From: Eledone cirrhosa
Lineage: Eukaryota
Direction of reading: 5' to 3'
DNA length: 64,000 nt
NCBI GenBank assembly: GCA_964016885.1
Contig: OZ024741.1
Span: 186,682,001-186,746,000, forward strand
Under the pieces are notes generated by a model, which worked only from the letters and a program-made list of their open reading frames with translations, made no database searches and was not told the DNA's origin. Below, piece by piece: positions 1 through 61,146 of this stretch (position 1 is the first letter of the stretch; every line of letters starts with the position of its first letter). The translations under genes and the position numbers were made by a program.

Positions 1-2759
1 TCCAATTTCTAATTTCTGCCGGACCGGCAACCGCTCTTTCAAACCAGTTCCTGTACACAGCTAAGTATTCTATAAGTCTCTAGCTGTGTCATTCTCGATA
101 AAAGCACTGGATATGTAGTCCTGATGATTTCTTACGAGAATGAAACGCGTAGATTACTTCCCTTGCTTTTATCGAGAATCTAATTGTAATACTTGACGTA
201 TTCTATTCTATAGCGATTAGGTCTTCAAAATGTTTATTATAAACATACAGAATATTTTCGAATATTCTATGTCTATATTCACATATATATCGCTATTTCA
301 GAGCATTTATTCCAATTTCTAATTTCTGCCGGACCGGCAACCGCTCTTTCAAACCAGTTCCTGTACACAGCTAAGTATTCTATAAGTCTCTAGCTGTGTC
401 ATTCTCGATAAAAGCACTGGATATGTAGTCCTGATGATTTCTTACGAGAATGAAACGCGTAGATTACTTCCCTTGCTTTTATCGAGAATCTAATTGTAAT
501 ACTTGACGTATTCTATTCTATAGCGATTAGGTCTTCAAAATGTTTATTATAAACATACAGAATATTTTCGAATATTCTATGTCTATATTCACATATATAT
601 CGCTATTTCAGAGCATTTATTCCAATTTCTAATTTCTGCCGGACCGGCAACCGCTCTTTCAAACCAGTTCCTGTACACAGCTAAGTATTCTATAAGTCTC
701 TAGCTGTGTCATTCTCGATAAAAGCACTGGATATGTAGTCCTGATGATTTCTTACGAGAATGAAACGCGTAGATTACTTCCCTTGCTTTTATCGAGAATC
801 TAATTGTAATACTTGACGTATTCTATTCTATAGCGATTAGGTCTTCAAAATGTTTATTATAAACATACAGAATATTTTCGAATATTCTATGTCTATATTC
901 ACATATATATCGCTATTTCAGAGCATTTATTCCAATTTCTAATTTCTGCCGGACCGGCAACCGCTCTTTCAAACCAGTTCCTGTACACAGCTAAGTATTC
1001 TATAAGTCTCTAGCTGTGTCATTCTCGATAAAAGCACTGGATATGTAGTCCTGATGATTTCTTACGAGAATGAAACGCGTAGATTACTTCCCTTGCTTTT
1101 ATCGAGAATCTAATTGTAATACTTGACGTATTCTATTCTATAGCGATTAGGTCTTCAAAATGTTTATTATAAACATACAGAATATTTTCGAATATTCTAT
1201 GTCTATATTCACATATATATCGCTATTTCAGAGCATTTATTCCAATTTCTAATTTCTGCCGGACCGGCAACCGCTCTTTCAAACCAGTTCCTGTACACAG
1301 CTAAGTATTCTATAAGTCTCTAGCTGTGTCATTCTCGATAAAAGCACTGGATATGTAGTCCTGATGATTTCTTACGAGAATGAAACGCGTAGATTACTTC
1401 CCTTGCTTTTATCGAGAATCTAATTGTAATACTTGACGTATTCTATTCTATAGCGATTAGGTCTTCAAAATGTTTATTATAAACATACAGAATATTTTCG
1501 AATATTCTATGTCTATATTCACATATATATCGCTATTTCAGAGCATTTATTCCAATTTCTAATTTCTGCCGGACCGGCAACCGCTCTTTCAAACCAGTTC
1601 CTGTACACAGCTAAGTATTCTATAAGTCTCTAGCTGTGTCATTCTCGATAAAAGCACTGGATATGTAGTCCTGATGATTTCTTACGAGAATGAAACGCGT
1701 AGATTACTTCCCTTGCTTTTATCGAGAATCTAATTGTAATACTTGACGTATTCTATTCTATAGCGATTAGGTCTTCAAAATGTTTATTATAAACATACAG
1801 AATATTTTCGAATATTCTATGTCTATATTCACATATATATCGCTATTTCAGAGCATTTATTCCAATTTCTAATTTCTGCCGGACCGGCAACCGCTCTTTC
1901 AAACCAGTTCCTGTACACAGCTAAGTATTCTATAAGTCTCTAGCTGTGTCATTCTCGATAAAAGCACTGGATATGTAGTCCTGATGATTTCTTACGAGAA
2001 TGAAACGCGTAGATTACTTCCCTTGCTTTTATCGAGAATCTAATTGTAATACTTGACGTATTCTATTCTATAGCGATTAGGTCTTCAAAATGTTTATTAT
2101 AAACATACAGAATATTTTCGAATATTCTATGTCTATATTCACATATATATCGCTATTTCAGAGCATTTATTCCAATTTCTAATTTCTGCCGGACCGGCAA
2201 CCGCTCTTTCAAACCAGTTCCTGTACACAGCTAAGTATTCTATAAGTCTCTAGCTGTGTCATTCTCGATAAAAGCACTGGATATGTAGTCCTGATGATTT
2301 CTTACGAGAATGAAACGCGTAGATTACTTCCCTTGCTTTTATCGAGAATCTAATTGTAATACTTGACGTATTCTATTCTATAGCGATTAGGTCTTCAAAA
2401 TGTTTATTATAAACATACAGAATATTTTCGAATATTCTATGTCTATATTCACATATATATCGCTATTTCAGAGCATTTATTCCAATTTCTAATTTCTGCC
2501 GGACCGGCAACCGCTCTTTCAAACCAGTTCCTGTACACAGCTAAGTATTCTATAAGTCTCTAGCTGTGTCATTCTCGATAAAAGCACTGGATATGTAGTC
2601 CTGATGATTTCTTACGAGAATGAAACGCGTAGATTACTTCCCTTGCTTTTATCGAGAATCTAATTGTAATACTTGACGTATTCTATTCTATAGCGATTAG
2701 GTCTTCAAAATGTTTATTATAAACATACAGAATATTTTCGAATATTCTATGTCTATATT

Positions 2760-2770
<11 letters not shown>
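1..2770 (+). repeat. Tandem array of about 8.9 copies of a 310-bp unit, each with a hammerhead ribozyme (retrozyme-like / Penelope pLTR array); runs off the left edge
   Basis: tccaatttctaatttctgccgg recurs at 1, 311, 621, 931, 1241, 1551, 1861, 2171 and 2481. Units look identical by eye. The array ends in a (TA)n tract at about 2763. Confidence 0.97.
115..157 (+). ncRNA. Minimal type I hammerhead ribozyme, repeated every 310 bp (9 copies)
   Basis: Stem I gtagtc/gattac; core CTGATGA (121-127); stem II ttct-tacg-agaa; GAAA (142-145); palindromic stem III ACGCGT; predicted cleavage after GUA (151). Flanked by a 16-bp inverted repeat attctcgataaaagca (91-106) / tgcttttatcgagaat (164-179). Confidence 0.88.
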
Positions 2771-2810
<40 letters not shown>

Positions 2811-2834
2811 CAAATACTTTTATAGCTCTACATG

Positions 2835-3245
2835 GCTAAATATAAGAAGTGAAAATCTGAGTTTTTTAAATATTAATAGTAATATTTGATTCGTTTGCAA
2901 TTATGCAAACAACCTCTTAAGCCATGTCAGTAGAATGCCTCCTTCATTCTTACCCTTGCGTTGGCATATATACACACCAGCAGACACTAATGTTTCTGGT
3001 TTATTACCCTTCAGCAGTACCGTATACTTTTTACCTGCCAATTGTCAGAGCTAGTGAAAATATATGATATATTCTGGAATATACATTCACTTTTCGGCCT
3101 GATTTGCATATTAGCAGGCAGCCTGATCAGTCAGATCTACATATTAGCTGACCCACTAATCATCCAGACTTGCATATCAGCAGATAGGTCAGGCAGTGTT
3201 TATGTATACGAACGATGGATGGCTGGCTTTGCCATAGTCAAATAA
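2835..3245 (-). mobile_element. Short non-coding repeat with a degenerate HHR (core CTGCTGA); paralog of 23836-24245
   Basis: Collinear similarity to 23836-24245 (gcagacactaatgtttctgg, gtcagagctag, ggcctgatttgcatattagcag). Confidence 0.7.
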
Positions 3246-3322
3246 CTAACAAATAGTTTACCGCTCAACATGGTTGAATACAAGAAATGTAAATATGAGT
3301 TTATATATTAATATATATATAC

Positions 3323-3414
<92 letters not shown>

Positions 3415-4387
3415 GCAACGAAATAATCAAAATTTTAATATTTTCGATCAAAGACCTGCATGATAAGGGCTGACCTGAGATTAACAGCAGACTTACAACT
3501 GATGATCTTAGATATCGCCACTGAAGGTTGGGTGGGGCGTCTCTCAATATTGGCCTGTGATCTTTTCGTTGTCTCATCGTTATGTTGGTCTATTCACGTA
3601 AACTCTCTGTAGATAAATCGATGTACCAAGAATCTACGGGGACTGCTGCAGCTGTCGAAACTGCTGTTGTTACTTTTGTTTAGCGCCAGACAGGTACTGT
3701 TAAGAGATGGGCCCAACTAGTTTTTAATTCTTGTTTTCCATTTTGTAGGTAACCTATATATGATATCTACATATTACATAAGGTATTTTGTTTTAATTTT
3801 TATTAATTTTAATAAGATACTCTACGAATTAAGTAATCTTGCATTCAGTACAGATTGTGTCTAGTCTTTAAGCTTTGATATATCTTAGTACACCCTTAAG
3901 TGTATATGAATATATTTCTTTAACTTTCTTATAATTGATATATTACACACATCATAATTTTAGACATATTTTGAAAAACATTAATTAATGAGTCCTCTTT
4001 TTTAAGGCAGTAAGATATGATGTAAGATAGATTTTGATGTCATGTCTTAATGGATGAGCTATAACGTACAGCTACTCATGCGGAACATAGTATTGTGATA
4101 ACATTTGTAGCTATCTACATTTTATGGCAAGTCAACACACATTGCAAAGACTTATCAAACATGCTAACAATAGACAATCTCATCTATGTTCAATACATGA
4201 AGTAATCTGTAACAGCTTTTATAAGTTTAGCAGCTTGTCATTCGACGCAAATTTGGGTGCTTTTTAAAGCTGAAGGTTGAAACAACTAGTTTCAGGCATG
4301 CATGTACACACACACACATTGTGTGTGTGTGTGGGGGGGGGGGACTCATTAATTAATGTTTTTCAAAATATGTATAAAATTATGATG

Positions 4388-4430
<43 letters not shown>

Positions 4431-4494
4431 TATATAACGGCGATGAATTACTTTTGCGAGGTTTTTTATATGAAGTCGTGTGTCGAAACAAATA

Positions 4495-6365
4495 TTGTTA
4501 TACTTGGGAAGGTTGATTGGGTGGACCAAAGCTATACGGACCCCGCCAAAACAATGATCAGGTAAGAAAAATGGCCCCACATGCAATAGGGGCTAGTATC
4601 AAAACTACCCTATAGGGCCACATATTCAAATTCAACGAGAAGATCTACACCCAAAATGAGGGAGCACCCACTGGTGTCAGCATAGCAGGTGACGTTGCCA
4701 ACCTTTTTATGGTATGGTGGGAAAGTACTCTCGTTACGTAGACGACATCAATATAGTAATAAGGAATCCCCACAAGAGAGTACTAACAAGTTTGATTTAG
4801 AACGTAGCACAATGGAAAGCATCCAGCAGATAGCTAATTCCATACACCAGAGAAAAACTGTAACTATAGACTACCCTAACAATAGACTACCTGTATTAGA
4901 CACGGAACTCTGGATTAACACTATAGACGAGAGAGCCCAAATTCTCCACTAACACTATGCTAAACCCATGGCCTCCAAATATCTGATACTCAAATCTCAG
5001 CAATGTCCAGTAGTGCTAAGTTTAATATTCTGATCGCAGACTTGGTACGAGTGATGAAGAACGTGTCCCGCATGTGCGACCCAACAGAAATGGAAAGACA
5101 CATCCAACACTTCATCAACCGTATGCAGTTCTCTGGCTACAACCAAAGAGACAGAATCAGAGTATACGAAGGAGCCACGGAGAAGTATAAGACTCTCATA
5201 GAACTGGACATGAAAGGAATTTGCCCATTATGCAGAAGCAAATAATGGAATAGCTTAGATAGGACTAGACATAAGATAGGTAAAGCCACATCATGGTACG
5301 ACAACAAGAGATACCAGAGTGTCATGTTTGTGGACACTACCCCTGGAGGGAAATTAGTTAACCAGTGTAGAAAGGCCCTGAGAAAGACCCACTTAAAGAT
5401 TAAGATGATAGAAAAGCCAGGAACTACCATAAAATCCCTGATCAGCAAAACTTACCCTTTTAAGAAAACCCACTATACTAATAGGAAATGTATTATATGT
5501 AAAGTAAACCCCCGGATAAACTGTAAAACTAGAAACGTAGTCTATAGCATAAGATGTACAGAGGGTACTTTCAGAAACATGACAACAACATACATAGGCG
5601 AGACAGCTCATAGCATAGGTGAAAGGATAGACCAACACTGGGGTGAACTAAAAGGACGAAAAAACGGTTCAGTACTATACGAACATGCCAGACAAAACGA
5701 CGGTAACATAGACAACATAGAAATTAGAATAATATCTAAACATAGAAATGACCCAGCAGATAGGCAAATCAGAGAGGCCAGCGAAATAGAACTTAGAAGG
5801 CCAAGGCTAAACAGAAAAAAATTAATGGAATAACAACAACACCCAAACAAACAAAACTGACCTAAGAGAAGTATAAATAAATAAATAAATACATACACAA
5901 GCACAATAACAACAAACACATATAAACACATACTAGTAAACTAACATAGAATACAATAACCAATACACAGTCACCCAAACACGAACACACATCAAACAAA
6001 ACACTATACACACACGGAAACGCATGCGCAGAGAAGACAAAAAATAAATAAATAAATAAATAAATAAACAGACTAAATAAAGATGGCGTAGGCATACAAT
6101 ACAACCGGAGGAAACATAATAGCACCACTGACGATGTTGCAGATGTGCAACGAAAGAACATTGTTAGACTATATATATGTGTTTGTGTCTATATTGTATC
6201 TGTATTTTTGACCGTTGGTCAGTCAATGGTAAACATTGAGGACCGAATAAATTAAATTAACCGATATAAAAGACACAGAAGCGAAAACCAACCAAACAGT
6301 GAGTGTGTTCTGTTATTAAATCTGGCAATATTATTACACAAATATGACCCTCCCCAAGTATAACA
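4495..6365 (+). mobile_element. Decayed, 5'-truncated Penelope-like element (RT remnant, C-terminal GIY-YIG endonuclease, 3' pLTR)
   Basis: Broken frames give YTQNEGAPTGVSIAGDVANLFM (RT motif 4), NNRLPVLD, YAKPMAS and CKTRNVVYSIRC..YIGETAHSIGERIDQH..REASEI..PRLN (GIY-YIG). The termini ttgttatacttggga and ccccaagtataacaa are inverted. Degenerate HHR at about 6128-6170. Confidence 0.88.
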
Positions 6366-6395
6366 ACATATATATATATATATATATATATGTGT

Positions 6396-7399: not shown

Positions 7400-8740
<1,341 letters not shown>

Positions 8741-8870
8741 ATTCTAGACACTTCTAAGTATATTAAGGAACTGAATAGTGTGCTATATATATAATAACGC
8801 ACATGGTATCTTAGCGTGTCTCACAAACTTACACCACTAAAAATAGCAGCAAGGTCTAGGATATTAATTC

Positions 8871-8948
8871 ATCGCCCACTGATGAGCAAGAATTGGTAAT
8901 TCTATTCACAATTAATATTGCGAAACATCACCAAGCTGTCTGGGTGAT
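8871..8948 (+). ncRNA. Type I hammerhead ribozyme
   Basis: atcgccca CTGATGA gcaa..ttgc GAA ACA tcaccaagc TGT C tgggtgat; all three stems pair; GUC site. Confidence 0.85.
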
Positions 8949-9378
8949 TGGTAGTTACCACAATTCCGGTTTGTATTTATTTTCTTGATTTTTTTCTTAA
9001 ATTGAGACAGGCAAACCCTATTGTCTATAGTTAGTATTTTTTTCACCTTAGCGAATCTGGTCCCTTGCGATTTGAACACATATATGTATATATCTGTGTT
9101 CGTTTTTCTTTTATATTCTATTATAATATACGGCTCGGAAACATCTCTTTCTTAGAGCTATTTTATTGTAAGAGACTATTTTGAGTTCCTAACTCAATAT
9201 ATACCTTTGATATATTCCGCTCCGTTAATTTGTTGAGCTATTTCAAATGTCGAATAAACCTGGCTGCTGTTTTTAGTGGTGTAAGTTTGTGAGACACGCT
9301 AAGATAGCATGTGCGTTATTATATATAGCACACTATTCAGTTAGTTAATATACTTAGAAGTGTCTAGGATACTAATTC

Positions 9379-9456
9379 ATCACCCACTGATGAGCAAGAA
9401 TTGGTAATTCTATTCACAATTAATATTGCGAAACATCACCAAGCTGTCTGGGTGAT
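9379..9456 (+). ncRNA. Type I hammerhead ribozyme (second copy)
   Basis: Perfect 8-bp stem I atcaccca/tgggtgat; same core as 8871. Confidence 0.87.
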
Positions 9457-9715
9457 TGGTAGTTACCACAATTCCGGTTTGTATTTATTTTCTTGATTTA
9501 TTCTTAAATTGAGACATGCAAACCCTATTGTCTATAAGCTGTATTCTTTTCACCTTAGTGAATCTGGTCACTTAGGATTTGACCACATATATGTATATAT
9601 CTGTGTTCGTTTTTCTTTTATATTCAATTATAATATACGGCTCGGAAATATCTCTTTCTTAGAGCTATTTTATTGTAAGAGACTATTTTGAGTTCTTAAC
9701 TCAATATATACCTTT

Positions 9716-13397: not shown

Positions 13398-13760
13398 AGG
13401 GCGGTGAATTGGCAGTATCGGTAGAGGGATGGACGCCATGCTTTCTAGCATAGTTACGTCCCTTTACAGTCTGAGTTCAAATCCCGCCGAGGTTAACTTT
13501 GCCTTTCATCCTTACGGGGTCGATAAAATAAAGTACCAGTAATGTACTGGGTAATTTGCTGGCCTTGTGCCTAAAGTAGAAACAATTATTAAATTTGAGT
13601 TCAAATCCCGCCGAGGTTAACTTTGCTTTTCATCCTTACGAGGTCGATAAAATAAAGTACCAGTAATGCACTGGGTTTTGCTGGCCTTGTGCCAAAGGTA
13701 GAAACAATTATTAAAACATGAGGCGGTGCATTGGCAGTATCGGTAGAGGGTCAGACGCCA
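13398..13760 (+). mobile_element. Cluster of tRNA-derived SINE family A copies (full, 5'-truncated and 5' fragment)
   Basis: A-box-like tggcagtatcggt, B-box gagttcaaatcc, tail gctggccttgtgcc..gtagaaacaattatt; attattaaatttga is repeated as a TSD. Confidence 0.88.
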
Positions 13761-47247: not shown

Positions 47248-48393
47248 CTACAGAAAAACCGCCCACGGGCGGTTTTCTACTACCATATGTAGTGTGCATA
47301 TTGGTATTATACGCAAATATATATGATATATAGATATATGTTAATTGAAAAGTAAAATGACCACATCTTCTTCTTCGCCCCCTTATTTCTGAGAGGGTCG
47401 TGGGTCAGAGTCCTTCTGAAACACTCCTTCCAGCGAGTCTGTCAGAAGCAAACATCTCTAACTGATCCAGCTTGATCCCAAAGTGACCAGCTAAGCTCCT
47501 GGGTGTTATACAAACATCTTGCTCAGGGTCTACCCATGGGTTTTTGCCAGTTGGTTATGCTAGTAAAATCTGTCCAGCAATTCTTGCACTTAATTCAGCC
47601 TCCTATATTCCATCACTCATGAACGTGGGTCCGAGATACTTGAACTTCTCTACCTTATTTGGTAGAACTCCATTCACATGTATGTAAATTTAAAATTTGA
47701 AACTTTTAAAAGAAGTGAATCGTGAAATAAGCAATAAAATTATTTATGTTTAATCAAGCGTTTCGAAATTTAGTACATATATTATGTAATATTCATTCAT
47801 TATTTATTCAAAGCTTTCATCCTTACGAGGTCGATAAAATAAAGTACCAGTAATGTACTGGGTAATTGCTGGCCTTGTGCCTAAAATAAAAACAATTATT
47901 TATTCAAAGGGTGGTGGATTGGCAGTATCGGTAGAGAGTCGAATGCCATGCTTTCCAGCATAGTTACGTCCCTTTACGGTCTGAGTTCAAATCCCGCCGA
48001 GGTTAACTTTGCCTTTCATCCTTACAGGGTCGATAAAATAAAGTACCAGTAATGCACTGGGTAATTGCTGGCCTTGTGCCTAAAGTAGAAACAATTATTT
48101 ATTGAAAGGGTGGTGGATTGGCAGTATCGGTAGAACATCAGACGCCATCCTTTGCAGCATAGCGTTATGGCTCTTCAAGGTCTCAGTTCAAATCCCGCCG
48201 GGGTTAACTTTACCTTTCATCCTTACGAGGTCGATAAAATGAAGCACCAATAATGTACTGGGATAATTGCTGGCCTTGTGCCAAATGTAGAAACAATTAT
48301 TTATTCAAACTAATCCAACTTATTTTACTAACGGGATAAAAAAAAAAACATAAACAGGACACTGTCCCGCACTCCTCCCTTTATTATAGTAAG

Positions 48394-54242: not shown

Positions 54243-57200
54243 TATTCCTTGAATCTCAGTCATTGATGTTGGTTAACTGGAAAGTCCGTTGGATTGAATA
54301 TCAAGCCACTACCTGCAGCCTCAGATATTCAGGACGTATCGGAGGGTTCTTGCTGTTCCAAGCAAGCATGCCTTTTGAAGCGTTCCAAAAAGCGTGAAGG
54401 GGCCGATTTTCTTTAACCATCCCTGGAAACCTTTGGAGATAGTCCCCAGTGCGCCTATGACAATCGGGATCACTTTGACTTCATGGCAGTTCCAAATCCT
54501 TTTCACCTCCCACTTTAGGTCCTGGTATCGGTTAATTTTCTCCCTCTCCTTCTCTTGCACTCTCGTGTCGAACGGGCAGGCCACATCCACAATCAGGCAC
54601 GATCTTTTTTCTTTGTCCACAACCACCAGGTCAGGTCTATTGTGTTCCAGTTTTTTGTCCGTCTGTATCCTAAAATCCCACAGCACCTTCACCTGACTGT
54701 TCTCCATCACCGCCTCTGGCCTATGCTCATACCATTTCTCAGAATGTGGTAGATTGTTTACTTTGCACAGGTGCCAGTGGATCACCCTGCCCATCACATC
54801 GTGTCTCCAGCCCTTATAGTGGGTCTGGGCTAGGTGTTTACACTCGGACACAATGTGAGCCACAGTCTCCTCTCTCTCTCCACAGATCCTGCACAGTGGG
54901 CTAGCCTCCTCCTTGTAGATATGGTGCTTCAACCACTTCGTTTTGAGGGCCTGCTCCTGCGCAGCCATTAGCATTCCTTCTGTAGCCTTTTTGAGGTCTC
55001 CTCTTCTCAACCAGTTCCATGTCTGTGGATCTCTAAATTCAGTTTTCTCAAAGAAGGTACTATGAAGGGATTTTTCCTTAAGGCTGCTCTTCCTCCTTGA
55101 TGTTATTTCCTCCTTGGACATCCCCTGGCCTACTGTCCCCTCCTTCAGTACAGTTCTGAGCATTGGCTCCTTACTATAGGTCACGTATTTGTATAGGTTG
55201 TTTTTCTCCATCTGAACACAGTCCTCTATGCTGATAAGACCTCTTCCACCCTCAGATCTCCTTAGGTAGAGTCTATCGACATCACTCCTCTTGTGGAACA
55301 TGTTGTAGATAGTCAATAGCTTCCTAGTCTTTCTATCCATTTCTTTTTGTTCAGCAACATTCCATCTCAGAATTCCCGCACTGTACCTAATAATAGACAC
55401 AGCTCGGGAATTTACTGCGCTTATGGCATTTCTGCTGTTCAGATGTGACTTCAATACGCTCCTTACTCTCCGAATGTATTCAGTTCTTAACAATTCCTTC
55501 ATTTTTTTGTTCTTTATGCCATCAGCCTCCAGAATTCCCAAATACTTGTATCCTTCCTCAGAGTCAATTTCCTTTATCATCTCACCTGTTGGTATCTGGA
55601 TCCCGTTACTTCTGCTCAACCTACCCCTCTTCATCACAATGACTCCACATTTACCAATACCAAACTGCATACATATATCACTGCTGAAAATACGGACAGT
55701 GTCAACAAGCACATCCAACTCCTTCTCACTTTTCCCGAAGAGCTTAAGATCGTCCATGAAGAGGAGGTGATTGATGGTAAGCTCTCCCCTTCCCAACTTG
55801 TATCCTGCTCTCACTTTTCGCAGCATAATGGTCAAGGGCATCAGGGCAAGGACAAACAACAGAGGGGACAGGCTATCTCCCTGGAAGATACCTCTCTTGA
55901 TCTTCACGCTTCCCAAGGATACTCCAGTTGATGTCAACTCTGTCTCCCAGGACCCCATACTCCTGCCCAGCAACTGTCTGATGTTATCCGCCACCCTGAA
56001 GATCTCCAGGCTTTTGGTGATCCAGGAATGAGGCACCATGTCAAATGCCTTTCTGTAGTCTATCCATCCCATGGCAAGATCAGTGTGTCTCCTCCTGCAA
56101 TTCCCCATTACCATCTTATCAATAAGCAACTGGTCCTTTGTACCACGTGACTTCTTTCGGCATCCTTTCTGTTCGTCCGGTAACAAGTTGTTTGTGTGGA
56201 GGTGATGGTAGATTTCCTCAGACACAATGCTCGTCAACAGTTTCCACATTACGGGCAGACATGTGATAGGTCTATAGTTGGTAACATCATTACCCTTGAT
56301 TCGGTCTTTCATTATCAGAACTGTGGTACCTTTTGTCAACCACTCTGGCACCTCACCCGACACCAAGCAGTCATTGAACATGGCCGTCAGCTTCGGGTGG
56401 AGGGATGTTAAATGTTTAATCCAATACCCCTGCACACCATCTGGGCCTGGTGATTTCCAGTTGGTTAGTTTTTTGGCTTGCCCCTTAAGAGTTTCAACTG
56501 TGATACTCAAATCAGTCTGTTGTTGTGCCTGCTCACCGATCTCCCTCTGTACTGTCTCAATCCACCCTGCCTGGGCATTGTGTCTAACATCCTGCTCCCA
56601 TATTCCTCTCCAGAATGTTTTAGCTTGTTCCGCCCCAGGGATCAAGTCGTTGCCTCTTTCTTTCCCCTCAAGCTGTCCAAACAGCATCTTCTGGTTGTTG
56701 TCGAACATGCGGTTCTGTTTATACTGACTGACTCTGTTCTCGTATCGCCTGATTTTTGCACTCTTTGCTACAATGCGTTGCTTCAATTCCTCTATGATAA
56801 TATTTAGCTTTTTACTCCTAGTTTTGTATTTTATTTCCAGTCTATTTTTAGTGCCTATGTTTTTTAGTGTCCCATTCAGTAGTGACTCAAGCTTTCCTAT
56901 GTCATTTCTCATTTCCCCGATTTGCCCACTCAGTCGCTTCTTCCACCACGGCTCTGCTCTTTCTTGTCTGTTGTTTCCTCTCGCTTTTATACCAAGTAGT
57001 TTCCTCACCGTATTTGCTGTTGCTTTGAGGATATTGTTGCACTGGTGAAGACTCCTCGCCTCAGGGTATGGGATGACTTTGTTTACCTTAGCTGTTGTTT
57101 CTTTTAACTTTTTCCTGTCTACAAATCTTAGGTTCATAGGTCTCCCACTATCATTGTTCAACTCATCTACCACTAAATTTAGGATGTCAACCGAATCTTG

Positions 57201-58190
57201 TCCTAGCCCGTCAGCACTCATCTCCTCAGTGGCCGTATCTCTGTTCCAGGTATTATTTATCTCAGTATTCAGATCATTGTCTGCTTCGGGTGGTTCCTCC
57301 GTTCTCAGGACCTCCTCAGCTTCATTTCCCGCCGGCTCGCTTGTCTGGCACACTACACCCGCCATCTCCAAGCCATTCTTTCTGCTCAGTTCCTCCAGTT
57401 CCAGCTCGCTTATCCACCCATTAGTTCTTATTACCCGAGCCTGCCCGGCCAATTTTTGTTCATCTAATTTAAATAAACCAATCTCGTTCCAGATGTTATG
57501 CATCCGTCTCCTGTAGCCCCTCTCCTTGGGGTTACTTTTCAGGTAGCATTGCATAACAGTTCTATTCAATTCTTTCGTCCAGTTGGTTCTGGCCCCTTTC
57601 CTTCTTCTTCTTCCTCCAACATCAGCAGTATTTGGTTGACAGTCAGGTTCCTGATGCTGAGCCAGGGGGCACCTGTTAGGTGAGAGTCTGTCACATGACG
57701 TTCTAGTCTCCATTTCACCGTTATTCGAACTGTTTATGTTCGATATTTAAACACTCTTATCGAGGATTGGCGAATGTATGTTTACATAGCCATCTGTGGA
57801 TCCGCCATCCCACTTGGCCCTTGTGTGGCATTATCACCACGCTGTATACGAACACACATAAACAAACAAACACACGGGCAGAAAGGGCCCCAAAAATGAA
57901 TAAGCATAAGTTTCATTGTAATGTAGTATTCGAATGTCTGACTTAGTTTTTGTTTTTTAAGTTTTACTTTCCCCCCCCCCTCTTCTCTGTCCGTCCGCCT
58001 GCTTCTCTCTTCATTCTTATTTTCTTTACGTTTTTGGGGTTTCTTTTTTTGTTTTTGTTTTTCTCTGTTTGTTTTTCTCGTTTTTTGCTGTTGTTGCTGT
58101 GCTGCTTTGGTTTTGTTGTTGTTTGTTTTTTCTTTTTTCTTTTGAGTCTATCTATATATTTTGATGCCTTCCTCTTTGTTAGTAGTAGGA
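54243..58190 (-). mobile_element. Full-length R4/Dong-clade non-LTR retrotransposon in (TAA)n
   Basis: Single intact ORF, about 78-nt 3' UTR, (TAA)n on both sides; the 5' boundary is uncertain. Confidence 0.9.
54321..57713 (-). CDS. R4/Dong-type polyprotein: RT, CCHC zinc knuckle and restriction-like endonuclease (1130 aa)
   Basis: NWKSPGPDG, NYRPITCL, WIDYRKAFD, RGIFQGDSLSPLLF, HLLFMDD, YKYLG, CRIC..ETVAHIVSEC, RHD, NRPDLVVVD..DVACP..EKINRY. Confidence 0.95.
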   Translation of the reverse strand: METRTSCDRLSPNRCPLAQHQEPDCQPNTADVGGRRRRKGARTNWTKELNRTVMQCYLKSNPKERGYRRRMHNIWNEIGLFKLDEQKLAGQARVIRTNGWISELELEELSRKNGLEMAGVVCQTSEPAGNEAEEVLRTEEPPEADNDLNTEINNTWNRDTATEEMSADGLGQDSVDILNLVVDELNNDSGRPMNLRFVDRKKLKETTAKVNKVIPYPEARSLHQCNNILKATANTVRKLLGIKARGNNRQERAEPWWKKRLSGQIGEMRNDIGKLESLLNGTLKNIGTKNRLEIKYKTRSKKLNIIIEELKQRIVAKSAKIRRYENRVSQYKQNRMFDNNQKMLFGQLEGKERGNDLIPGAEQAKTFWRGIWEQDVRHNAQAGWIETVQREIGEQAQQQTDLSITVETLKGQAKKLTNWKSPGPDGVQGYWIKHLTSLHPKLTAMFNDCLVSGEVPEWLTKGTTVLIMKDRIKGNDVTNYRPITCLPVMWKLLTSIVSEEIYHHLHTNNLLPDEQKGCRKKSRGTKDQLLIDKMVMGNCRRRHTDLAMGWIDYRKAFDMVPHSWITKSLEIFRVADNIRQLLGRSMGSWETELTSTGVSLGSVKIKRGIFQGDSLSPLLFVLALMPLTIMLRKVRAGYKLGRGELTINHLLFMDDLKLFGKSEKELDVLVDTVRIFSSDICMQFGIGKCGVIVMKRGRLSRSNGIQIPTGEMIKEIDSEEGYKYLGILEADGIKNKKMKELLRTEYIRRVRSVLKSHLNSRNAISAVNSRAVSIIRYSAGILRWNVAEQKEMDRKTRKLLTIYNMFHKRSDVDRLYLRRSEGGRGLISIEDCVQMEKNNLYKYVTYSKEPMLRTVLKEGTVGQGMSKEEITSRRKSSLKEKSLHSTFFEKTEFRDPQTWNWLRRGDLKKATEGMLMAAQEQALKTKWLKHHIYKEEASPLCRICGEREETVAHIVSECKHLAQTHYKGWRHDVMGRVIHWHLCKVNNLPHSEKWYEHRPEAVMENSQVKVLWDFRIQTDKKLEHNRPDLVVVDKEKRSCLIVDVACPFDTRVQEKEREKINRYQDLKWEVKRIWNCHEVKVIPIVIGALGTISKGFQGWLKKIGPFTLFGTLQKACLLGTARTLRYVLNI

Positions 58191-58252: not shown

Positions 58253-60898
58253 TATTCCTTGAATCTCAGTCATTGATGTTGGTTAACTGGAAAGTCCGTT
58301 GGATTGAATATCAAGCCACTACCTGCAGCCTCAGATATTCAGGACGTATCGGAGGGTTCTTGCTGTTCCAAGCAAGCATGCCTTTTGAAGCGTTCCAAAA
58401 AGCGTGAAGGGGCCGATTTTCTTTAACCATCCCTGGAAACTTTTGGAGATAGTCCCCAGTGCGCCTATGACAATCGGGATCACTTTGACTTCATGGCAGT
58501 TCCAAATCCTTTTCACCTCCCACTTTAGGTCCTGGTATCGGTTAATTTTCTCCCTCTCCTTCTCTTGAACTCTCGTGTCGAACGGGCAGGCCACATCCAC
58601 AATCAGGCACGATCTTTTTTCTTTGTCCACAACCACCAGGTCAGGTCTATTGTGTTCCAGTTTTTTGTCCGTCTGTATCCTAAAATCCCACAGCACCCTC
58701 ACCTGATTGTTCTCCATCACCGCCCCTGGCCTATGCTCATACCATTTCTCAGAATGTGGTAGATTGTTTACTTTGCACAGGTGCCAGTGGATCACCCTGC
58801 CCATCACATCGTGTCTCCAGCCCTTATAGTGGGTCTGGGCTAGGTGTTTACACTCGGACACAATGTGAGCCACAGTCTCCTCTCTCTCTCCACAGATCCT
58901 GCACAGTGGGCTGGCCTCCTCCTTGTAGATATGGTGCTTCAACCACTTCGTTTTGAGGGCCTGCTCCTGCGCAGCCATTAGCATTCCTTCTGTAGCCTTT
59001 TTGAGGTCTCCTCTTCTCAACCAGTTCCATGTCTGTGGATCTCTAAATTCAGTTTTCTCAAAGAAGGTACTATGAAGGGGTTTTCCCTTAAGGCTGCTCT
59101 TCCTCCTTGATGTTATTTCCTCCCTGGACATCCCCTGGCCTACTGTCCCCTCCTTCAGTACAGCTCTGAGCATTGGCTCCTTACTATAGGTCACGTATTT
59201 GTATAGGTTGTTTTTCTCCATCTGAACACAGTCCTCTATGCTGATAAGACCTCTTCCACCCTCAGATCTCCTTAGGTAGAGTCTATCGACATCACTCCTC
59301 TTGTGGAACATGTTGTAGATAGTCAATAGCTTCCTAGTCTTCCTATCCATTTCTTTCTGTTCAGCAACATTCCATCTCAGAATTCCCGCACTGTACCTAA
59401 TAATAGACACAGCTCGGGAATTTACTGCGCTTATGGCATTTCTGCTGTTCAGATGTGACTTCAATACGCTCCTTACTCTCCGAATGTATTCAGTTCTTAA
59501 CAATTCCTTCATTTTTTTGTTCTTTATGCCATCAGCCTCCAGAACGCCCAAATACTTGTATCCTTCCTCAGAGTCAATTTCCTTTATCATCTAACCTGTT
59601 GGTATCTGGATCCCGTTACTTCTGCTCAACCTACCCCTCTTCATCACAATGACTCCACATTTACCAATACCAAACTGCATACATATATCACTGCTGAAAA
59701 TACGGACAGTGTCAACAAGCACATCCAACTCCTTCTCACTTTTCCCGAAGAGCTTAAGATCGTCCATGAAGAGGAGGTGATTGATGGTAAGCTCTCCCCT
59801 TCCCAACTTGTATCCTGCTCTCACTTTTCGCAGCATAATGGTCAAGGGCATCAGGGCAAGGACAAACAACAGAGGGGACAGGCTATCTCCCTGGAAGATA
59901 CCTCTCTTGATCTTCACGCTTCCCAAGGATACTCCAGTTGATGTCAACTCTGTCTCCCAGGACCCCATACTCCTGCCTAGCAACTGTCTGATGTTATCCG
60001 CCACCCTGAAGATCTCCAGGCTTTTGGTGATCCAGGAATGAGGCACCATGTCAAATGCCTTTCTGTAGTCTATCCATCCCATGGCAAGACCAGTGTGTCT
60101 CCTCCTGCAATTCCCCATTACCATCTTATCAATAAGCAACTGGTCCTTTGTACCACGTGACTTCTTTCGGCATCCTTTCTGTTCGTCCGGTAACAAGTTG
60201 TTTGTGTGGAGGTGATGGTAGATTTCCTCAGACACAATGCTCGTCAACAGTTTCCACATTACGGGCAGACATGTGATAGGTCTATAGTTGGTAGCATCAT
60301 TACCCTTGATTCGGTCTTTCATTATCAGAACTGTGGTACCTTTTGTCAACCACTCTGGCACCTCACCCGACACCAAGCAGTCATTGAACATGGCCGTCAG
60401 CTTCGGGTGGAGGGATGTTAGATGTTTAATCCAATACCCCTGCACACCATCTGGGCCTGGCGATTTCCAGTTGGTTAGTTTTTTGGCTTGTCCCTTAAGA
60501 GTTTCAACTGTGATACTCAAATCAGTCTGTTGCTGTGCCTGCTCACCGATCTCCCTCTGTACTGTCTCAATCCACCCTGCCTGGGCATTGTGTCTAACAT
60601 CCTGCTCCCATATTCCTCTCCAGAATGTTTTAGTTTGCTCCGCCCCAGGGATCAAGTCGTTGCCTCTTTCTTTGCCCTCAAGCTGTCCAAACAGCATCTT
60701 CTGGTTGTTGTCGAACATGCGGTTCTGTTTATACTGACTGACTCTGTTCTCGTATCGCCTGATTTTTGCACTCTTTGCTACAATGCGTTGCTTCAATTCC
60801 TCTATGATAATATTTAGCTTTTTACTCCTAGTTTTGTATTTTATTTCCAGTCTATTTTTAGTGCCTATGTTTTTTAGTGTCCCATTCAGTAGGGACTC

Positions 60899-60901
<3 letters not shown>
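58253..60901 (-). mobile_element. 5'-truncated, near-identical second Dong copy with one nonsense codon (59591-59593)
   Basis: Collinear with 54243-56891 with only scattered substitutions; GAG>TAG splits the ORF; truncated at (TAA)n. Confidence 0.93.
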
Positions 60902-60957
<56 letters not shown>

Positions 60958-60958
<1 letters not shown>

Positions 60959-61146
60959 GGGGGATTGGCAGTATCGGTAGAGGGTCGGACGCCATACTTT
61001 GACGCTTAGAGTTACGGCCCTTGCCATTCTGAGTTCAAATCCCGCCGAGGTTAACTTTGCCTTTCATCCTTACGGGATCAATAAAATAAAGTACCAGTAA
61101 TGCACTGGATATTTGATAGCCTTGTGCCAAAAGTAGAAACAATTAT
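60958..61146 (+). mobile_element. SINE family A inside (TTA)n
   Basis: Consensus match. Confidence 0.88.

Follow-up and report, generated by a model that had tools for sequence, protein, structure and literature searches.

The axolotl retrozymes Rtz331 and Rtz353 (PMC7229834) resemble the element described here. According to the accessible text of that report, they form tandem arrays of ~300 bp units with a GC content under 50% and no ORF, and have one type I hammerhead ribozyme per unit and a self-paired monomer. Helix III of HHR_Amex1 is one pair with a palindromic tetraloop and stem II of HHR_Amex2 starts with a U.U pair, both as in our element, and the two ribozymes cleave better as dimers. 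Cleavage and RNA circles were demonstrated in the axolotl (PMC7229834), whereas for the present element both are predictions from genome sequence. Return of retrozymes to DNA through a circle copied by a retroelement reverse transcriptase, with Penelope-like elements (PLEs) as the candidate, has hitherto been a proposal: PLE mobilisation was put forward for the axolotl retrozymes (PMC7229834), and both the origin of retrozymes from PLEs and their dependence on them have been proposed in print (PMC7229834; bioRxiv 10.64898/2026.07.22.740005). Vertebrate retrozymes were described as PLE derivatives by Li, Clavereau and Pollet (bioRxiv 10.64898/2026.07.22.740005). In the available part of that preprint they are likewise non-autonomous, PLE-related and of similar unit length, the evidence consists of co-occurrence and pLTR homology, and local DNA amplification is proposed for the tandems. 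In contrast, the ends and haplotypes reported below indicate that the tandems arose during insertion, and no pLTR homology was detected.

Endonuclease-bearing PLEs, among them non-autonomous elements of Chlamys such as MRC1, share with our element an inverted 5'-truncated copy, a tail at one end and microsatellite targets, and their non-autonomous members also form multicopy head-to-tail insertions (PMC8557442, accessible text). Our element differs from the endonuclease-bearing PLEs by having no ORF and a tail of 26–35 nt. Most Chlamys elements are without hammerheads, and no circle template is proposed for them in the accessible text (PMC8557442). The anole Poseidon element PAc has two internal starts bounding a tail, an AT-rich target, extension of both strands and a predicted dimer, which is comparable with the features found here; as far as the available portion of the report goes, PAc was assayed on linear RNA only, and its ribozyme required protein (PMC11167929). 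Back-to-back arms, fixed end sites, (TA)n targeting and fixed A-to-G changes, all present here, are not described for the axolotl retrozymes in the accessible text (PMC7229834), and we found no description of a two-armed build with fixed starts or of fixed A-to-G changes in retrozymes in the literature, supplements and subscription papers aside.

The window is a stretch of 64,000 nucleotides of the Eledone cirrhosa genome that starts at position G000:C2:186,682,001 of the assembly. Self-comparison showed that positions 1–2770 (+ strand) are the right-hand 8.9 units (8.93 copies) of a sense arm built of a 310-bp unit. Units 1–8 were mutually identical, and unit 9 was the same up to base 2770, where periodicity stopped and gave way to a (TA)n run at 2763–2809. 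The array that the initial annotation had placed at 1–2770, ending in (TA)n, was therefore real, but it extends 9.3 kb past the left window edge and includes an inverted arm that had been missed. The sense arm totals 34.1 units and begins at G000:C2:186,674,192, 7.8 kb to the left of the window. It is preceded by the inverted arm of 4.85 units (~4.9), which starts at G000:C2:186,672,688, and the two arms meet back-to-back with a 1-base overlap. The entire insertion measures 12.1 kb, of which the window covers about a quarter. Both outer ends abut (TA)n; the run at 2763–2809 is the right half of the target microsatellite, a matching run lies at the left end, and a target duplication is unreadable inside (TA)n. 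The base change 193T (position 193, + strand) was present in 39 of 39 passes in both arms and, on this haplotype, only in this insertion. The array belongs to a single young insertion with two arms, made by a non-autonomous hammerhead element of 310 bp, probably a non-LTR retrozyme.

Rare variants suggest a further event in the long arm. Changes 132C and 111C were each present twice, 17 units apart, which indicates an original arm of roughly 17 units that has been doubled, either by duplication in DNA or by the assembler. The explanation of the identical units by reverse transcription, suggested earlier, thus holds in part, the duplication or doubling of 17 units also contributing. Contigs assembled from the raw data of four sequencing runs (kind unrecorded, contigs only) bridged the junction from base 310 to base 1, which speaks against the array being an assembly artefact; the 17-unit doubling could be an assembly error. 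In run X1 the depth of the single-copy flank was about 10, and the summed depth of the unit was over 100,000, a sum that is no copy number, in a run that may be the assembly's own source. Runs X4, X5 and X6 each yielded one 340-base contig in which the unit was closed on itself; these were set aside as evidence for circles, since assemblers collapse tandem DNA in the same way.

Nine hammerhead cores were located in the window at 121+310k, in agreement with the nine copies at exact 310-bp spacing noted before. In unit 1 the predicted type I motif occupies positions 115–157 (+) and recurs every 310 bases; the prediction is based on sequence and on covariation in sister families. Stem I is formed by 115–120 and 152–157, the core CUGAUGA lies at 121–127, stem II at 128–141 has a U.U pair at its base and a UACG loop, GAA follows at 142–144 and the self-complementary ACGCGU at 145–150. 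Cutting is predicted after A151 of a GUA triplet. The core, palindrome and GUA of the initial annotation were correct, and its stem II had been drawn without the basal U.U pair. The hammerhead was found in all 37 full units of the insertion, two of which had a changed stem II. The UACG loop-2 variant, which may affect tertiary contacts, is rare in the genome (232 of 14,232 motifs), the usual loops being AACA and AACG. No hammerhead core was found on the minus strand of the array, and Rfam covariance models gave no hammerhead match at E <= 1 in window positions 1–4000; the hammerhead call therefore rests on hand anatomy and covariation. With 6 bp in helix I, 4 bp plus U.U in helix II and 1 bp with a palindromic loop in helix III, the ribozyme is by its sequence of the canonical metazoan type I build with a weak helix III needing a second copy. 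It is not the minimal type of PLEs that had been invoked, which according to the accessible text of PMC4209133 has a helix II of 7–8 bp, a helix I of 4–5 bp and essentially no helix III.

The motif is enclosed by a perfect 16-bp helix with its 5' strand at 91–106 (+) and its 3' strand at 164–179 (+). This helix had been described earlier as a perfect enclosing extension, correctly as regards its pairing; two small internal loops and 3 bp separate it from the 6-bp stem I. Together, the 16-bp helix and stem I are predicted to clamp both ends of the cut monomer (152 to 461). The monomer fold was more stable than its shuffles (z = −4.1 for the linear and −4.6 for the circular form), and ACGCGU was computed to pair with a neighbouring copy over 6 bp at −9.5 kcal/mol. 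The unit contains 106 G or C among 310 bases, and the longest stop-free frame in the array has 59 codons, which agrees with the earlier statement that no ORF is present. The features used to recognise metazoan non-LTR retrozymes (non-coding units of 150–450 bp, GC under 50%, a type I hammerhead in each, self-pairing) are thus all found here, and the assignment to this type of array, with a dimer-type helix III, stands: the units are of 310 bp with a 1-bp helix III and a palindromic loop.

Older sister families of 313–322-bp units were observed at L088–L117, L052:5960–6210 and L057:8100–8900. They have the same end region and build, with swapped ribozyme modules, a longer palindromic helix III and a U3-A8 core, a swap known among hammerhead variants (PMC4209133, accessible text). 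The end region is common to these families, a related motif giving 5,482 matches, whereas their ribozyme modules differ from that of the window family. Core positions 3 and 8 were paired in all 14 modules compared (6 C-G, 8 U-A). Stem II and the outer helix varied in sequence among modules with pairing kept, and stem II pairing was 0.98 within modules as opposed to 0.70 across modules. The 14 modules were picked by hand from 52 distinct sequences and are related, so these values are support and not a statistic. Locus-fixed core changes in 73 loci were solely at the free position 7. These sequence comparisons support selection on the ribozyme. Upstream of it, two short blocks are kept across the sister families, at unit bases 68–77 (ATTCTATAAG) and 24–52; judging from sequence, they are possibly an internal promoter.

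Genome-wide, the ribozyme pattern had 14,232 matches and its reversed control none. The exact pattern of one insertion end (B) had 1,058 matches, which indicates at least 1,058 dispersed insertions; that of the other end (A) had 1,601, a figure with double counts on one strand. We examined 106 insertions, namely 24 taken from the best BLAST matches, the first 15 on contig C1, 7 picked by variants and 60 picked by their B end. Ninety-four were two-armed and back-to-back, nine were single-armed and three were unclassified because of a tangled end or N gaps (L043, L055, L167). One A and one B end were present in 92 of 92 two-armed insertions in which both ends were seen. This was the case in all 37 insertions not picked by an end (19+11+7), and in the B-picked insertions the far end was A in 55 of 55. 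Single-armed insertions ended at A in six cases and at B in three; the rule that single arms always end at A, which held for the first six loci, was given up when the three B arms were found.

End site A, ACATATATAT (281–290, +), is present in every unit and is used at the right end of the window insertion (2761–2770). The short ATATATAT that had been taken for the unit end is thus one of two fixed insertion end points. End site B, TCCAAT (311–316, +, reaching unit base 5–6), lies 26–35 bases downstream of A and forms the outer end of the inverted arm; ends at this site clustered at 315–316, with a few at 310–323. The segment between the two sites (291–316, +) corresponds to a PLE-type tail. 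Site A matches (TA)n over up to 8 nt and would be a reverse-transcription start that pairs with the target, and site B would be a second start. PAc differs in this respect, its starts not being homologous to the target in the available text (PMC11167929). Outer ends sat in TA-rich microsatellite runs, except for the A end of L057, which was in merely AT-rich DNA. At L123:2870–8830, the (TA)n target is enclosed by an inverted repeat of about 35 bp that is made up of the insertion's flanks.

Inner ends, unlike the outer ones, were scattered over the unit. Of 92 junctions defined by BLAST ends, 45 had overlaps of 1–6 bases, 8 were blunt, 26 had extra bases and 13 overlapped further. The median insertion contained 8.6 units, both arms were usually multi-unit, and divergence was 0.03%. 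Arm lengths were weakly correlated (rho 0.36, p 0.051, 30 loci, the window arm entered as 17.1 units), and a model of lock-step extension was dropped for this reason. The longest arm seen has 45 units with higher-order variant repetition (L152–L153, G000:C1:97,461,504–97,476,483). In L137:1–3452, the junction and the right end are duplicated 3.06 kb apart, which is a local DNA duplication.

Endonuclease-bearing PLEs leave an inverted 5'-truncated copy and a 30–40 bp tail at one end and are biased to (TA)n and other microsatellites (PMC8557442), and the anole PLE protein starts reverse transcription on both strands from two sites inside the RNA that bound the tail, both target strands being cut and extended (PMC11167929; available portions of both reports). 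By analogy, the architecture of our insertions is the inverted-copy-plus-tail signature of PLEs. The earlier proposal that a PLE enzyme mobilises the element is supported by the A and B ends, the inverted arm and the (TA)n target, and we consider insertion of the retrozyme by a PLE enzyme very likely.

A young PLE, found at L029:520–4247, has an RT-endonuclease frame of 897 codons and, at 4044, a hammerhead-like core; its (TA)n end harbours a retrozyme insertion. Copies of this family are 96–98% identical, with frames of up to 1,280 codons, and show the same two-ended, (TA)n-embedded build with an inverted arm. The tail is about 55 bp long and unlike that of the unit, so this family is a comparator, not a proven partner; its similarity to the unit did not exceed chance (local score 25, 21% of shuffles as good). 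No PLE sharing the A/B end region was found among 30 motif loci, 63 endonuclease-end flanks (part of the output) and the L029 family, nor was an ORF joined to the end motif of the sister families at the 30 motif loci. A Neptune-like family at window positions 8168–8653 was rejected as partner: it is old, its other copies being at most 88% identical. It lies in a region (7950–9700) that comprises an old Neptune-like endonuclease fragment (−) and, after it, a pair of 508-bp pLTRs in which hammerhead-like cores with a long stem II occur at 8879 and 9387.

A-to-G changes provide a record of the copied strand. Among locus-fixed changes on the ribozyme strand, a hand count gave 16 independent A>G and 4 T>C events (p = 0.001), leaving out 153A>G, an older subfamily marker; the same comparison for single-unit changes gave 7 to 14. 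Recurrent A>G changes occurred on several backgrounds at helix sites 100, 117 and 171, each with a 5' U, and 9 of 10 changed sites were in predicted helices. A100 lies in the 5' strand of the 16-bp helix and is unchanged in the window insertion; A171 is in the 3' strand. Changes at the three sites were fixed in 13 of the 14 insertions carrying them and never appeared as a single-unit change in 730 units. Genome-wide, A100G had 821 matches in whole-insertion runs, which may descend from few founders (3 backgrounds seen); the first 100 matches formed 8 clustered runs with no isolated unit. Controls in the same helix were mostly scattered, with 9 matches for the mirror change T170C, 1 for A98G (5' G) and 13 for the equally wobble-tolerated C96T. 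The last two values rule out wobble tolerance alone as the cause of the excess. The sequence context agrees with ADAR, which disfavours a 5' G and, in invertebrates, prefers a 3' A (PMC5625713, accessible text). From the substitution pattern, we think it likely that the marks are due to ADAR. Since editing acts on single molecules, an edit shared by all units of the two arms suggests repeated copying of one monomer.

Haplotypes were in line with this. Across 73 insertions and their 730 full units, loci with under 3 full units being excluded, we counted 33 haplotypes and 73 single-unit substitutions, and the modal unit was equal in both arms in 50 of 59 insertions. The variant 193T had 64 matches in 6 places, of which 39 were in the window insertion. 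The other five places had other backgrounds, and in four of them 193T filled all or nearly all units. No second locus with the window haplotype was found in the assembly. In 963 crossings of the predicted cleavage site there was a single indel, where the background is 0.7 per equal window; of 184 inner ends, 4 fell there against 6.5 expected (L016 left out of this test). Because of these clean crossings and because arms do not stop at the site, the template is covalently continuous, that is, a ligated circle or uncleaved RNA and not cut monomers joined by jumps. Internally uniform, private haplotypes, fixed A-to-G changes and the continuous junction together favour the single, probably circular monomer template suggested earlier, and on balance we take a single monomer circle to be the usual template.

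Had one long linear transcript of a typical array served both enzymes, the two arms would mirror each other in their unit-level changes. At 72 two-armed loci with 245 units of overlap (L016, L044, L137 and L158, which are cut, rearranged or incomplete, left out), changes were mirrored at 2 loci and 70 bases were unmirrored, although the test is weakened by the chance that unmirrored single changes arose through later mutation of the DNA or errors of assembly. In the two loci, L148 and L168, the arms agree in a unit-level change and in the pass that bears it, and a monomer circle would need a joint template switch there. The haplotype changes part-way or differs between the arms in L139, L176, L122 and L022. 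The switch in L168 comes in each arm when exactly two passes have been completed, and L122 switches at both inner ends. Joint template switching is a possible cause in L139, L168, L122 and L022; in general, mirrored and switching loci need template switching or occasional multi-unit templates. A multi-unit template could be the source of two further matches between arms that lie at different passes (L129, L034). Arms of 17 or more units repeat variants (the window insertion and L128, L129 and L152, with arms of 19–45 units in the latter three), and DNA-level duplication therefore contributes to long arms.

Taken together, we consider it more likely than not that a PLE reverse transcriptase-endonuclease wrote the element into its (TA)n site by copying a single, probably circular monomer RNA, through the following steps. 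Pairing via the ACGCGU palindrome would let tandem transcripts form double hammerheads, and cutting after GUA would release 310-nt monomers, as suggested by anatomy, covariation and the axolotl precedent. About 25 bp of pairing are predicted between the monomer ends, which RtcB would probably ligate by analogy with PMC7229834 (accessible text), and ADAR likely edits some molecules within the end helix, as the substitution pattern suggests. The PLE protein would then cut both strands of a (TA)n run, and one DNA 3' end would prime at site A and the other at site B, 26–35 nt downstream; both end sites are observed, and the priming is modelled on the available account of PMC11167929. Both enzymes would circle the template, typically for 1–13 rounds, and the two cDNAs would be joined back-to-back at random points through microhomology or a few extra bases, as seen at the junctions. 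Long arms, that of the window included, gained length later, by DNA duplication or by doubling in assembly, as their repeated variants show. In a more far-reaching version, to which we give somewhat less than even odds, a PLE protein dimer would prime the cut ends of a (TA)n run at two points 26–35 nt apart on one ADAR-edited RNA circle, displace strands for up to about 17 turns per arm and sometimes swap circles; an insertion would then be a tape recording of one circular RNA, and its edits would be inherited as variants of the element that can be amplified.

The same element and PLE enzyme could instead use RNA transcribed from a homogeneous donor array, as an uncleaved linear multimer or as a dimer or still larger circle; the hammerhead would then be a passenger or only occasionally active. 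Such a template gives equally clean junctions and would account for the mirrored changes in L148 and L168. It also agrees with multimeric RNAs seen in the axolotl (PMC7229834) and with uncleaved RNA being the dominant anole PLE substrate in vitro (PMC11167929; accessible texts of both). The latter result, the insertion of ribozyme mutants in the same system (PMC11167929), and the cleavage in vitro of only 1 of 9 Xenopus retrozyme dimers (bioRxiv 10.64898/2026.07.22.740005, available part) count against the ribozyme-circle pathway. However, the assembly contains no donor for the window haplotype, and independent editing along a multimer would give mosaics instead of A-to-G changes fixed in 13 of 14 insertions, so a monomer bottleneck is required at some step even here; we consider such a template unlikely. 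Insertion of one to two units per arm followed by satellite-like expansion through slippage and unequal exchange is true in part for long arms, given the doubling of 132C and 111C at a distance of 17 units and the repeated variants in the 19–45-unit arms of L128, L129 and L152. As a general explanation it is improbable: arms under about 15 units carry single-unit rather than repeated substitutions, haplotype switches aside, and both arms are usually multi-unit (median 8.6 per insertion) at 0.03% divergence.

Replication of the monomer circle from RNA to RNA in the manner of viroids, with the resulting multimers copied by a PLE enzyme, would likewise yield identical units with fixed edits, and the heterogeneity of mussel circles was left open to RNA replication (PMC7229834, accessible text). 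The minus strand of the array, however, is without a hammerhead core and the A-to-G bias is wholly on the ribozyme strand, and we regard this course as very improbable. Even less credit can be given to the unit being merely the pLTR of a neighbouring full-length PLE or to the array being an assembly artefact, two objections raised with the initial annotation. Units are perfectly identical and the 17-unit doubling could be an assembly error, yet these readings are already largely refuted by more than 1,000 separate insertions, by the bridged 310-to-1 junction in the contigs of four runs and by the abutment of both outer ends on (TA)n. No PLE reading frame, that is, no RT-endonuclease ORF, was attached to the window insertion on either side. 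Within 20 kb leftward, the sole PLE-like match was a 51-codon piece 20 kb off. A PLE remnant located 1.7 kb rightward is an independent copy that carries frameshifts.

Returning to the pathway through an edited circle, more than a thousand young insertions would record the class of enzyme (PLE ends), the strand (A-to-G bias), the number of templates (fixed private or edit-like variants) and the closed state of the cleavage site. Making the template would be a likely function for PLE-type hammerheads, and the fixed A-to-G changes would be an example of RNA editing feeding inherited sequence change. Since two candidate start sites can be named, an in vitro assay of the PAc type is possible on a defined 310-nt circle.

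Other repeats were observed in the window. The PLE remnant to the right of the insertion (4437–6370, +) is frameshifted, matches P0001 at about 60% identity and is bounded on either side by (TA)n; it has a short inverted end and, at 6128, a hammerhead-like core. Tandem SINE-like repeat copies with periods of 124 and 199 bp are located at 13472–13715 and 47814–48309. Two near-identical copies of a non-LTR retrotransposon occupy 54321–57746 (−) and 58331–61063 (−), the first of which has an open frame of 1,141 codons with RT and a C-terminal nuclease-like region.
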